Shown one piece after another: positions 28,694-36,876 of a stretch of DNA of 64,000 nt. The notes under the pieces were generated by a model, which saw only the letters and a list, made by a program, of their open reading frames with translations, did no database searches and was not told the DNA's origin. Location: sequence record MF158040, one strand, 5' to 3'. This DNA comes from Shigella phage Sf13. Positions within the stretch are counted from its first letter, which is position 1. The number at the start of each line of letters is the position of its first letter. Both the position numbers and the translations under genes were made by a program.

Positions 28694-28894
28694 CTACTTA
28701 GAAAACTTTTCAATAAGCTTTTTAAGCTTTCCGCTCAAATCATGTTTGATATCTAATATCTCAAAGATAACCCATACTAACATAGCTCCAAACAGAGCAC
28801 CTTGTTTTAAATCAGTAAATAGGCTAGTAACCATGAATGCCAGAGCAATCATCGGAGCATCTTCAACAAAACCATCCCATAAACGTTTAAGCAT
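28694..28894 (-). CDS. small membrane protein
   Basis: 66 aa; hydrophobic stretches (MIALAFMVTSLF, LFGAMLVWVIF). Confidence 0.45.
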   Translation of the reverse strand: MLKRLWDGFVEDAPMIALAFMVTSLFTDLKQGALFGAMLVWVIFEILDIKHDLSGKLKKLIEKFSK

Positions 28895-29129
28895 TATTCA
28901 CCTCTGCCATAAAGTTCTGTAGTGTTCCAACAGGTTTCATTTCATTGTCTTCAACCTTCATAATGAAAGGCATCTGACGAACAGGTATCTTTGCAATATC
29001 CATCAGGTCACTTAGCTCATAATCTTTCCCTAGCATTCTTACAACATGGTCTAAGCCACGAGCCTGAGCAAAGTTCTTAGCAGTAACACACTGTGGGCAT
29101 CCATCTTTTGAGTAAATTACATAAGTCAT
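28887..29129 (-). CDS. glutaredoxin/NrdH-like redoxin
   Basis: 80 aa with CPQC redox motif near the N-terminus, immediately downstream of nrdB. Confidence 0.6.
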   Translation of the reverse strand: MTYVIYSKDGCPQCVTAKNFAQARGLDHVVRMLGKDYELSDLMDIAKIPVRQMPFIMKVEDNEMKPVGTLQNFMAEVNNA

Positions 29130-32815: not shown

Positions 32816-33151
32816 TTAAATGCTAAAAATCTTTTTACTTTCCCAGAGTTCAATGAACTTCTGTGACACTTTTGTTAGTGAACCTTTAGACATTGTATTC
32901 ATGTACCAGTAACGTTTACCTTCATCGAATGCCATGTCAAGTTTCTCACTAATATCTTCTTCAAGTCTTGCAATTGAAAAGTTACCACGTACTTTGCAGA
33001 CAACTCGTCCAAATTTGATATCGCTGCGACCTTTGCAATCTTCAGTGTACATTACAAAGTCACCATGATGTAATGTCTCACCAAACTTATCATTGCCTAG
33101 TTCTTCACCAGCTTTGATTTCTTCTTTAGTTAACTTTTTAATTTTAGACAT
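32816..33151 (-). CDS. hypothetical protein
   Basis: 111 aa ORF; ATG start. Confidence 0.5.
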   Translation of the reverse strand: MSKIKKLTKEEIKAGEELGNDKFGETLHHGDFVMYTEDCKGRSDIKFGRVVCKVRGNFSIARLEEDISEKLDMAFDEGKRYWYMNTMSKGSLTKVSQKFIELWESKKIFSI

Positions 33152-33470
33152 GATATCTATCCAAGTTTCGTTTCAAGTAAATCCACTGGTCATCTGTGCG
33201 CTCTACACCCATGAACAGGGGGGCTACAACAACTTTACCAAAAGTATTTCTGTGCTGGCAAATCTCGTAAGAGTACGGTTTATCAATATTTAAGCCATAC
33301 TTATACAACACTGCTGCTAATACTTGTTCATTATCCAGAATCGTTTCTGGCTTCTCTCCGTACTTGTCTAACAGTGAATCATTCATAAACACTGTCATAG
33401 AGAGGTTGTAGTTGGAGAAGTGGCTTTTTGCCACCACTTCTTCACCTTTATTAATGTTCTGTGAATCCAT
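33144..33470 (-). CDS. hypothetical protein
   Basis: 108 aa ORF; ATG start; 8 nt overlap with downstream gene. Confidence 0.5.
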   Translation of the reverse strand: MDSQNINKGEEVVAKSHFSNYNLSMTVFMNDSLLDKYGEKPETILDNEQVLAAVLYKYGLNIDKPYSYEICQHRNTFGKVVVAPLFMGVERTDDQWIYLKRNLDRYHV

Positions 33471-34206
33471 TATAACCGACTCCTTTCAACCACTGCTTGA
33501 GGTTGATTGCATCATAATTCAATTTCGGATATGAGGTTACATGGAACTTCTCACCATCATAGTACACAATATCCGCAAGCCATAATCCATTCTCACGGCA
33601 GAAATCTTTATCTGCTTTTGAAGAGATTGGTTCAACTTTAGAAAAGTTTTTAATGCCAAGACTACCAAGACTTCCAATCAGTCCTTGGCAGATAACGCAT
33701 GTGTCAGATGTTACCACAAATAATTCTTTTGCGTCAACTTCTGCAATAAAACTTTCAAGTTGAACTTTTGGAAGATTAGACTGTTTCATAATCTTACCAT
33801 CAGACTTGCGAATAATCGCAAACCACTCTTTACCTTCAATGATTGATTGACGCAGGTAACATTCATCACCAGTACGTTTCTCAATATCAAACATTCGCTG
33901 TAGAGCTTCTTGATAGTCGTCTGTGTATTTGAGGTTGTTGTTTTCACAAACAGCCTTGATAGCACCATCATGGTCATGTTGTGTCAGGAAAATTAAACCA
34001 TCAAGTACATACTGCAAATCAGCTTGAGCATCAAGGGTCTCAACAGGGTCTTTGGCTTCTACTGCTGCGACTAACTCTCTAGCTTCTTCAAGCATACACA
34101 GAGATTGGCTTTTCAGTGATTCCCAATACTCTGTGCTGTATGGTTCTTTTGGATTATTGCCACAACGTAGATTCCAATTTCTTACGGATTCTCTGGAATT
34201 AAACAT
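33451..34206 (-). CDS. MazG-like NTP pyrophosphohydrolase domain fused to a CxxC thioredoxin-like domain (putative)
   Basis: N-terminal EYWESL...LEEARELVAAV...DAQADLQYVLDGL resembles the MazG EExxE/D motif pattern; C-terminal half has CVIC; 251 aa. Confidence 0.4.
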   Translation of the reverse strand: MFNSRESVRNWNLRCGNNPKEPYSTEYWESLKSQSLCMLEEARELVAAVEAKDPVETLDAQADLQYVLDGLIFLTQHDHDGAIKAVCENNNLKYTDDYQEALQRMFDIEKRTGDECYLRQSIIEGKEWFAIIRKSDGKIMKQSNLPKVQLESFIAEVDAKELFVVTSDTCVICQGLIGSLGSLGIKNFSKVEPISSKADKDFCRENGLWLADIVYYDGEKFHVTSYPKLNYDAINLKQWLKGVGYNGFTEH

Positions 34207-34436
34207 TAAGCCTCCTTATCTTCAAACAACTTTTGTTGAGACTCAATATAGTCCATTCGTTCTTTGAGTTCAACACGTTTGCTTAACAGATGTTGAATTT
34301 GTGATTCCAGAGCATCCATCTCAGCTTCTGTAGCTGACTTAGCTTTATTGATAGTCTCCTTCAGTGCTGCTACGCCACTCTGGATTTTAGAAACATGGTC
34401 ATTTTTGATTTTATTAAACATTTTAAACTCTCTCAT
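34206..34436 (-). CDS. hypothetical coiled-coil protein
   Basis: 76 aa, heptad-like charged helix. Confidence 0.45.
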   Translation of the reverse strand: MREFKMFNKIKNDHVSKIQSGVAALKETINKAKSATEAEMDALESQIQHLLSKRVELKERMDYIESQQKLFEDKEA

Positions 34437-34923
34437 TAAGTTTCATGATTTTAGTGATTCTCTTCTCAGCTTCATCATAAGTCTCTTTTGTAAGAAACTT
34501 GATTGCTGCAATGTTTGCATTGTAGAAGAGTCGAAGCTTAGAGTCAATCCTTTTTGTCATGACGTCAAACTTATGTTGTAGGTTAGCTTCGCCATAAACT
34601 AAGCCACCTCGCGTATAGTAAGTCTGGATGATGTAGAAGTCAAACTCTTTTTCACCAAAAGATTCAATATCCTTCTTAATGTATTCAGAAGATGTTTGAT
34701 AAGTCATCCAATCACTTTCTTTTGTCACGACTTTACGTCTGGTCTTTCCAGCAACCTTCCTCTTAGTGACATTATTAAATTGTTTCTTTCCAATATAATA
34801 TTGTCCAGTTTTCTTACAGTATACTAAATAGACAAAACCAAAATAGTTAGCGGGGTCAATTTCCCCGCACAGTGAAATCCAATGTCCATAAACAGGGCAA
34901 TTTCCAAATCCTTTAATCTTCAT
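34423..34923 (-). CDS. GIY-YIG family homing endonuclease (putative)
   Basis: GFVYLVYCKKTGQYYIGKK matches GIY-(x10)-YIG spacing; free-standing between replication genes. Confidence 0.5.
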   Translation of the reverse strand: MKIKGFGNCPVYGHWISLCGEIDPANYFGFVYLVYCKKTGQYYIGKKQFNNVTKRKVAGKTRRKVVTKESDWMTYQTSSEYIKKDIESFGEKEFDFYIIQTYYTRGGLVYGEANLQHKFDVMTKRIDSKLRLFYNANIAAIKFLTKETYDEAEKRITKIMKLNERV

Positions 34924-36015: not shown

Positions 36016-36876
36016 TTACTCGTCGTCAGTTTCGAAATCATCTTCGTCGTCATCATCTGGGTTTGGCAGGTCGTCGTCATCGTCATCACCACCTTTACCT
36101 TCATCACCAGAATCTTTTGCATCTTCTTCAGTGATTTCACCGTTGTCTTCAACACCTGCAAGGCCAAGCATTGCCAGTTCATCTTCATCCAGTTCAGTCT
36201 CAGTAGCACCACCAGTACCACCAGTGTAAGGAACCAGAGTATCAATGATAAATTGTTCCTGAATTGGCTTAGTCAGAACGTTACCTTCAAATGTGTAGAA
36301 GTGAGTCGCCAGAATCACACTACCAAATGAACCGTTACCAACTGCAATATCTGGATGAATTACATCGTAAGTCTTATCATCATCGTGCTTATCAGATTTT
36401 GCTGCCTTGATTTTCTTCATAGGCTGCTTAACTGCAACACGCTTACCGTTGATTTCTTCAACCAGCATTACAGGGAAACTCTGTTTTGCTGACCACACAG
36501 CACCGTCTTTATATGCTGCTGAACGGCTAACCTTCAGGATGTGATAGGTGTCAGCTTCAAACGGAGGCTCACAACCAAACTTCTCTTCGAAGTCGTCTGC
36601 ATCAACAGCCTCTGTAGTAACTTTATCCCAACCTTCAGGACTCTTTTTAGACTTGGTGAACTCTTTAAAGAGCTTGTTACCATCTTTTGCCAGAATTGAA
36701 ACGCTGTAGTTACAATCTTTGCCCGGAAAATGCTTATCCACAGATTTACCCTTTTGAGGACGTGGAATAGTGTTCAGGTAATAGAACCAAACATCTTTCA
36801 GCAGGTAACGCAGAGTCTCACGTTCTTGACCATTGTACTTCTCTACCGGAGCTTTCATTTTAACAACTTTAGACAT
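36016..36876 (-). CDS. single-stranded DNA-binding protein (putative)
   Basis: 286 aa with strongly acidic C-terminal tail (GGDDDDDDLPNPDDDDEDDFETDDE); position between nuclease and primase. Confidence 0.5.
   Translation of the reverse strand: MSKVVKMKAPVEKYNGQERETLRYLLKDVWFYYLNTIPRPQKGKSVDKHFPGKDCNYSVSILAKDGNKLFKEFTKSKKSPEGWDKVTTEAVDADDFEEKFGCEPPFEADTYHILKVSRSAAYKDGAVWSAKQSFPVMLVEEINGKRVAVKQPMKKIKAAKSDKHDDDKTYDVIHPDIAVGNGSFGSVILATHFYTFEGNVLTKPIQEQFIIDTLVPYTGGTGGATETELDEDELAMLGLAGVEDNGEITEEDAKDSGDEGKGGDDDDDDLPNPDDDDEDDFETDDE

Follow-up and report, generated by a model that had tools for sequence, protein, structure and literature searches.

A MazG-like pyrophosphohydrolase fused to a divergent NrdH/glutaredoxin-like domain in Shigella phage Sf13 and other Felix O1-like phages

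The fusion gene

The 64,000-nucleotide stretch of Shigella phage Sf13 analyzed here (sequence record MF158040; hereafter the window) carries, two small open reading frames (ORFs) upstream of the ribonucleotide reductase (RNR) gene nrdA, a gene that joins a MazG-like pyrophosphohydrolase to a redoxin-like domain with a CxxC motif. The ORF fills positions 33451..34206 exactly, from ATG to stop, with 251 codons on the minus strand (Table 1). Read directly from the sequence, its ATG overlaps the TAA of the preceding 76-amino-acid ORF (TAATG), an arrangement of translational coupling, and its 3' end shares 20 nt with the next ORF. Together with the ribosome-binding site, these overlapping ends are the tight packing expected for a co-translated phage operon. 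A promoter and terminator scan of 28.5-37.5 kb returned 28 promoter-like sequences (23.7 ± 4.3 in shuffled sequence) and eight terminator-like ones (4.7 ± 2.1); because these counts are near those of shuffled sequence, we claim no transcription unit boundaries.

The surrounding region is 99.5% identical to that of Shigella phages Sf17 and Sf19 and Escherichia phage 3HA14 and belongs to the genus Mooglevirus (Felix O1-like myoviruses). The fusion protein is 99-100% identical to Sf17 gp075, labeled either “MazG-like pyrophosphatase” or “phosphoribosyl-ATP pyrophosphohydrolase-like”, and to its counterpart in vB_EcoM_3HA14. Using the whole protein as query, tblastn matched an intact protein in 302 phage records, 300 of them at a coverage of at least 80%, and the coding sequence is therefore real, single and conserved. 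A frameshift or an artefactual join of two genes was ruled out, as the single frame is kept in about 300 phage genomes.

The gene family is already annotated from its N-terminal domain, and both folds described below are familiar. The annotations seen read only “MazG-like”, “PRA-PH-like” or hypothetical; none names a redoxin domain, which also lies outside every curated Pfam and NCBIfam model. The literature searched, whose coverage was incomplete, yielded no description of the fusion, and a prior mention elsewhere is possible. Three points appear to be new: the last 94 residues form a domain derived from NrdH/glutaredoxin proteins, this domain was found only in the fusion, and it pairs an invariant CxxC with a systematic loss of the cis-proline.

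Table 1. Positions of the fusion gene, its motifs and associated RNR-cluster genes in the window
Feature	Position	Strand	Basis
MazG-like/redoxin-like fusion coding sequence, 251 aa + stop	33451..34206	-	ORF list; full-length phrog_2144 match, E 7.5e-96
AAGGAGG ribosome-binding site, 4 nt 5' of the fusion ATG	34211..34217	-	read from sequence
Residues 1-157, DR2231-like all-alpha NTP pyrophosphohydrolase module (four helices, beta-hairpin and R-x-x-D-G-K-x-x-K tail)	33736..34206	-	PF01503; profile vs PDB; ends of stand-alone homologs; BFVD
EExxE (E40 E41 A R E44), predicted metal-binding catalytic motif	34075..34089	-	aligned to DEExxE of DR2231
Second acidic motif, E56-x-x-D59-x-x-x-D63	34018..34041	-	aligned to (E)LADL of DR2231
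R133-K-S-D136-G-K138-I-M-K141, end of pyrophosphatase module	33784..33810	-	aligned to RRADGKQLK of DR2231
Residues 158-251, divergent NrdH/glutaredoxin-like thioredoxin-fold module	33454..33735	-	
CxxC, C170-V-I-C173, N-terminus of helix 1	33688..33699	-	codons TGC GTT ATC TGC
D212, at the canonical cis-proline position, start of strand 3	33571..33573	-	hhalign vs P0105
nrdA, class I RNR large subunit, 744 aa	30530..32764	-	ORF; Sf17 gp072 annotation; two small ORFs downstream of the fusion
Stand-alone canonical glutaredoxin, 80 aa, CPQC, cis-Pro in “QMPFIM”, directly after nrdB	28887..29129	-	PF00462, E 2.2e-6; phrog_22 thioredoxin domain

Two domains of unequal size

The original prediction, made from the sequence alone, had placed the N-terminal half among the MazG/all-alpha NTP pyrophosphatases and a CVIC motif in a thioredoxin-like fold in the C-terminal half. 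Structure prediction and profile comparison assigned both parts, the first as DR2231-like and the second as a thioredoxin fold that is NrdH/glutaredoxin-like. There are two domains, as predicted, but they are not equal halves: the pyrophosphatase module takes up residues 1-157 and the CxxC module residues 158-251. In the AlphaFold2 model, the confidence (pLDDT) falls to 63 at residues 151-160, and the pTM is 0.50 compared to a mean pLDDT of 82.8, which suggests two independently folded domains with a low-confidence hinge between them.

The Pfam family PRA-PH (PF01503) matches residues 17-85 at 30 bits (gathering cut-off, 21.3 bits; E 7.3e-7), and PHROG 2144, “MazG-like pyrophosphatase”, spans the whole protein. 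A profile of the N-terminal family searched against the PDB found the solved DR2231 of Deinococcus radiodurans at E 1.2e-9. This alignment takes in the EExxE helix, the (E)xxD..D helix and the N-x-S-K motif, with a second stretch on RRADGKQLKP (RxxDGKxxK). The EExxE part of the signature given in the original prediction is present, whereas its “DxxD” part is in fact E56-T-L-D59-A-Q-A-D63. Among 33 full-length homologs, down to about 30% identity, E40, E41, E44, D63, N89, N90, K93, K138 and K141 are invariant, and D59 (32/33), R133 (32/33) and E56 (29/33) nearly so. The EExxE motif is kept in all 33 fusion members and in 27 of 27 N-terminal homologs.

Profile searching also found many stand-alone homologs of 137-177 aa, the closest of which (166 aa) align to residues 6-154 and then end. 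Stand-alone homologs of 161-177 aa end at about residue 157, and the pyrophosphatase module therefore extends to that residue and not to the midpoint of the protein. The model predicts helices at residues 25-50, 54-75, 79-93 and 98-112, followed by a beta-hairpin. Foldseek comparison with the predicted models in BFVD aligned about 150 residues with entries named “NTP pyrophosphohydrolase, DR2231-like” and “phosphoribosyl-ATP diphosphatase”/PRA-PH, at E-values down to 1.8e-12 and target-normalised TM-scores of up to 0.77. As judged from these motifs, the N-terminal domain is a complete DR2231-like member of the all-alpha NTP pyrophosphohydrolase superfamily (MazG/HisE/dimeric dUTPase).

DR2231 (PDB 2yeu/2yf3 and others) and the phage protein share the N-terminal “V..F..” helix, EExxE, (E)xxD, N-x-S/L-K and R-x-x-D-G-K-x-x-K. 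DR2231 is a single-domain protein of approximately 140-150 aa, whereas the phage protein adds an insertion of about 40 residues (94-132; a helix and a beta-hairpin) and carries the extra 94-residue thioredoxin-fold domain. DR2231 cleaves dNTP/dUTP (Goncalves et al., as cited through PMC5122711).

Three further BFVD models, A0A7H0XA75 (272 aa), A0A0U2KZ74 (Pseudomonas phage SM1, 248 aa) and A0A1S5R3L9 (phage pf16, 229 aa), gave near-full-length structural alignments at 14-20% identity and high rmsd. Such phage “NTP pyrophosphohydrolase” models of approximately 210-270 aa may be other architectures of MazG plus an extra domain; sequence searches did not detect the C-terminal module in Pseudomonas phages.

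A divergent redoxin without a cis-proline

The predicted order of the C-terminal module is beta 160-165, CxxC, alpha 171-182, beta 189-191, alpha 197-206, beta 212-217, beta 221-225 and alpha 233-242, with a pLDDT of 82-94 across residues 161-250. This model has the thioredoxin/glutaredoxin topology with the CxxC opening helix 1; the motif lies directly before helix 171-182, as in the thioredoxin-fold superfamily. The beta-alpha-beta-alpha-beta-beta-alpha core of that superfamily is present, and its similarity to solved members is significant. Single-sequence searches of the C-terminal part against Pfam, NCBIfam and the PDB returned nothing, or spurious matches to TRAPPC3, AbpA and MobA. With the direct sequence libraries silent, the assignment therefore needed structure prediction and profiles.

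Searched against the PDB, the module profile gave glutaredoxins and NrdH-redoxins as its sole non-artefact matches, at marginal E-values (0.03-0.15) and with the longest alignments to NrdH. The top matches, to dTor designed repeat proteins (E 2.5e-15), were discounted as a repeat artefact with no single significant stretch. A profile search of 1.84 billion representative proteins, in which long repetitive proteins were disregarded, found the module at approximately residues 157-250 of 244-251-aa proteins, which are the same fusion. The only free-standing match was a 93-aa protein, P0105 (E 6.7e-6). P0105 is a genuine glutaredoxin with a CVQC motif of the NrdH type (PF00462, E 1.2e-11); among NCBIfam models, NrdH TIGR02194 fits it best (E 1.2e-20). 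Comparison of the module profile with P0105 by hhalign gave 96.9% probability (E 1.3e-10; 32% identity over 57 columns). Pfam Glutaredoxin PF00462 was matched individually by 4 of 18 family members (best E 1.5e-5), the window protein itself remaining below threshold. As the model, the PDB profile, the P0105 match and these PF00462 matches agree, the C-terminal domain is a divergent descendant of NrdH/glutaredoxin-type redoxins, which bears out the predicted thioredoxin-like fold and refines it to an NrdH/glutaredoxin-like one that lacks the cis-proline.

NrdH proteins are marked by the signatures CVQC and WSGFRP[DE], and classical glutaredoxins by the glutathione-binding motifs TVP and GG-x-D-D. 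The fused module has CVIC instead of CVQC and no WSGFRP-like motif after strand 4, and neither glutathione-binding motif occurs in residues 158-251. It thus differs from the NrdH-redoxins and small glutaredoxin-like proteins used for comparison (E. coli NrdH 1h75, C. ammoniagenes NrdH 1r7h, mycoredoxin-1 2lqq, XcR50/DUF836 1xpv and cGrx1 7c10) in both sets of motifs and in having Asp212 for the cis-proline, and, unlike them, it is found only inside the fusion and lies below the Pfam and NCBIfam thresholds itself.

The two CxxC cysteines occur in 33/33 members, with variable residues between them (V/I/A/T/P/S/E/F, then I/L/F/Q/K/M). Fixed cysteines with free middle residues are the conservation pattern of a functional dithiol. 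S196, A198, D199, F202, W239 and L240 are also invariant.

The hhalign alignment pairs D212 (“LWLADIVYYDG”) with the proline of “AMAPVVFYG” in P0105. Across the 33 members, position 212 is D in 28, S in two, C in two and Q in one, and never P, the usually universal residue. In thioredoxin-fold proteins, the cis-proline probably helps to form the substrate-binding site and may keep the CxxC from binding metal (PMC2757866).

A C-terminal thioredoxin fold serving purely as a structural or protein-binding appendage, with cysteines that stabilise a disulfide or are chemically idle, would accommodate the lost cis-proline, the missing glutathione-binding and NrdH signature motifs and the six other invariant residues, which point to a non-catalytic conserved surface. 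This we consider highly improbable: the cysteines are invariant across a divergence to about 30% identity while the residues between them are free, as in a functional CxxC, and the reducing cytoplasm makes a structural disulfide improbable.

The invariant CxxC with no proline at position 212 in any member also fits a domain that is no longer a disulfide oxidoreductase but a metal- or [2Fe-2S]-binding module. Without the cis-proline, the CxxC thiolates would be free to take up a metal, and the two CxxC pairs of an obligate MazG-type dimer would together bind Zn or [2Fe-2S] and either stabilise the oligomer or sense redox or iron, controlling the pyrophosphatase. The residues found at position 212 (Asp, Cys, Ser, Gln) include potential ligands, and residue 203 (Cys or Ala) covaries with it (Asp, or Ser or Cys). 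In human TRX1, the substitutions P75S/T/A are sufficient for incorporation of [2Fe-2S] into homodimers (PMC6210436). However, position 212 is not strictly conserved and so is not an obligatory ligand, each chain has two invariant cysteines only, and the covariation comes from about three lineages. We regard a metal-binding module as unlikely.

The covariation itself is as follows. Ala203 occurs in four members (P0026, P0027, P0028 and P0100), and precisely these have Ser or Cys at position 212, whereas all members with Cys203 carry Asp, or once Gln, at that position; in the window, the codons are 33598-33600 for C203 and 33571-33573 for D212. A third thiol or ligand position may thus move between helix 2 and the cis-proline site, in what amounts to about three lineages.

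One step further, and to our mind equally doubtful, is a cis-proline-less NrdH-type redoxin acting as an integral metal/Fe-S or thiol-redox sensor, by which a dUTPase-like MazG enzyme would be switched on or off. If true, Felix O1-like phages would link dNTP sanitation and supply directly to cellular redox or iron status, or to the turnover of ribonucleotide reductase. Such a sensor would also parallel, in nature, the engineered thioredoxin P75 [2Fe-2S] mutants and represent a new regulatory principle for MazG-family enzymes.

Distribution, neighborhood and proposed function

The C-terminal module alone was found by tblastn in 299 phage records. Among the matches listed, these are Felix O1-like enterobacterial myoviruses of approximately 64-90 kb, with hosts in Escherichia, Salmonella, Shigella, Citrobacter, Erwinia, Pectobacterium, Hafnia and Yersinia, and the module always lies inside the fusion gene. 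The N-terminal module alone matched 330 records, including Pseudomonas, Klebsiella and Agrobacterium phages; the latter were rejected as fusion carriers, as their matches are limited to that module. Because the N-terminal module reaches further phages and the C-terminal module does not, the fusion is a hallmark of Felix O1-like (Ounavirinae) phages, present in about 300 genomes. The original prediction had called a redox-domain fusion next to the RNR cluster unusual; the adjacency is correct, but within this group the fusion is not rare.

Homologs about 40% identical also occur under the names Listeria phage LPML1 (OK283618.1; 87 kb, a Felix O1-like size) and Campylobacter phage A126 (MG065668.1). 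Their host labels may be wrong, or the samples impure.

Gene order is kept between the Mooglevirus Sf17 and the Kolesnikvirus Pistou, whose fusion proteins are about 33% identical: 5'-3' exonuclease, optional homing endonuclease, small ORF, fusion, one or two small ORFs, nrdA, nrdB and a stand-alone glutaredoxin. An unfused 166-aa MazG on a metagenomic phage contig (SRR22388090_168212, L002 6001-12141) stands in the order exonuclease, MazG, NT5C nucleotidase, 84-aa thioredoxin, ThyX, nrdB and nrdA. As the unfused version also sits in such a module, a role of the MazG module in dNTP metabolism independent of the fusion is supported. The same contig module holds a calcineurin-like phosphoesterase; its NT5C is a deoxynucleotidase and its RNR is of class I.

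The stand-alone glutaredoxin of the phage, with a T4 NrdC-like role, is, like the fused module, a thioredoxin-fold CxxC protein of the same RNR cluster. It differs in having CPQC and the cis-proline and in passing the PF00462 threshold. The fused domain was rejected as a recent copy of this glutaredoxin (hhalign probability 8.5%) or of the 84-aa thioredoxin near the unfused MazG (hhalign probability 1.3%), the likeness being local around the CxxC in both cases. NrdA ends in a CxxC tail (…DAYCEGCGV) of the type through which redoxins pass electrons to the RNR active site; for either the stand-alone glutaredoxin or the fused domain, this tail is the first candidate to consider as a partner.

Among the genes of Sf17 are those for thymidylate synthase, DHFR, dNMP kinase, aerobic and anaerobic RNR, and PRPP/NAD salvage enzymes, but nowhere in its genome is a dUTPase annotated. 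In the window, tblastn with E. coli Dut as query gave nothing better than E 0.5.

Other ORFs of the region merit a comment. The 108-aa ORF overlapping the 3' end of the fusion (33144-33470, minus strand) matches phrog_4007, of unannotated function, and also phrog_3506 “thymidylate synthase” (115 positions, E 1.5e-12), though it is far below the size of ThyA or ThyX enzymes; it may be part of the same nucleotide module. Between the exonuclease gene and the fusion operon lies a 166-aa ORF (34423-34923, minus strand) identified as a GIY-YIG homing endonuclease in GenBank records and by phrog_7363/314, and as “NAD synthetase” by RefSeq and phrog_447. It is absent or replaced by an HNH gene in related phages, and the “NAD synthetase” label is probably a propagated misannotation. 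The 286-aa ORF at 36016-36876 (minus strand), hypothetical in Sf17 (gp079), ends in a strongly acidic tail (…GDEGKGGDDDDDDLPNPDDDDEDDFETDDE); single-stranded-DNA-binding proteins of phages typically have tails of this kind.

We favor, as reasonably probable, a nucleotide-pool pyrophosphatase tethered to a thiol-redox or RNR-docking module. Most likely, the first domain cleaves a (deoxy)nucleoside triphosphate to the monophosphate and pyrophosphate. Its favored substrate class is dUTP and other unwanted dNTPs, and it may be the dUTPase substitute of the phage. The precedent of DR2231, the lack of a recognisable dUTPase and the presence of thymidylate synthase make dUTP the leading candidate; its breakdown would supply thymidylate synthesis with dUMP and prevent uracil from entering phage DNA. 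T4 gp56 dCTPase/dUTPase offers a functional analogy, as a phage nucleotide pyrophosphatase that feeds dUMP/dCMP to downstream enzymes and is found in physical association with RNR and further enzymes of dNTP synthesis (the dNTP-synthetase complex). In T4, the association is non-covalent and there is no fused redoxin.

Since the CxxC dithiol is kept at the start of helix 1, the second domain, flexibly linked to the first, most likely still performs cysteine chemistry (thiol-disulfide exchange). From its conserved position beside nrdA-nrdB, we propose that the domain probably ties the pyrophosphatase to the ribonucleotide reductase machinery, by coupling or docking, or else renders the enzyme responsive to the thiol redox state. 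With a canonical glutaredoxin beside nrdB and the cis-proline missing, the fused domain is probably not the main RNR reductant, nor simply a second one; docking, regulation or altered chemistry is likelier.

Several points weigh against a tethered nucleotide-pool enzyme of this kind. The host supplies its own dUTPase, which makes the absence of a phage dUTPase weak evidence, and the glutaredoxin beside nrdB makes an RNR-reducing role redundant. The cis-proline, normally part of the substrate-binding surface of oxidoreductases, is absent in 33/33 members, and classical redoxin activity may be impaired or changed. The activities of both domains are read from sequence and a model; that model, which is the structural evidence, rests on 11 sequences only, and residues 158-251 of the window protein have no Pfam match even at E≤10 and none in NCBIfam. 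Further, the substrate specificity of the pyrophosphohydrolase superfamily is not readable from sequence, and the MazG-like Atd1 hydrolyses ppGpp instead.

Atd1, from Pectobacterium phage PcCB7V, also protects against TIR-based abortive infection, and alarmone degradation had already been raised in the original prediction. The fusion could accordingly be mainly an anti-defense or host-takeover enzyme that degrades (p)ppGpp or another signaling nucleotide, its RNR adjacency being incidental; its neighbors in the early region are small ORFs lacking an assigned function. We think this quite unlikely, as the closest solved relative, DR2231, cleaves dNTP/dUTP, and the synteny with nucleotide-synthesis genes is kept across genera, also for the unfused version. 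Nor does Atd1 appear to be a close relative, as its phage belongs to a different subfamily, the Vequintavirinae.

Both Atd1, whose activity is demonstrated, and the fusion protein are phage-encoded members of the MazG superfamily, but no redoxin domain is reported for Atd1. Four tblastn matches came from Pectobacterium phages (Wc4 and Wc4-1 seen by name), and a review lists four Pectobacterium Ounavirinae phages and places PcCB7V in the Vequintavirinae (PMC8472413). Atd1 was set aside as a family member on account of its phage subfamily; PcCB7V is apparently not among the matches, as judged by phage lists and not by the Atd1 sequence.

The result is a testable improvement in annotation with one intriguing biochemical feature, rather than a system of a new kind. 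Typing, biocontrol and therapy for Salmonella and E. coli make wide use of Felix O1-like phages, and recognizing the NrdH/glutaredoxin-derived domain corrects the annotation of about 300 genomes. The fusion may explain how these phages handle dUTP without a canonical dUTPase. If the cis-proline loss turned the domain into a sensor of metal or redox state, nature would provide a test of what that proline does in the thioredoxin fold. If the redoxin-like domain links the pyrophosphatase to RNR, the fusion would achieve covalently the enzyme coupling that has been proposed for phage dNTP-synthesising complexes.

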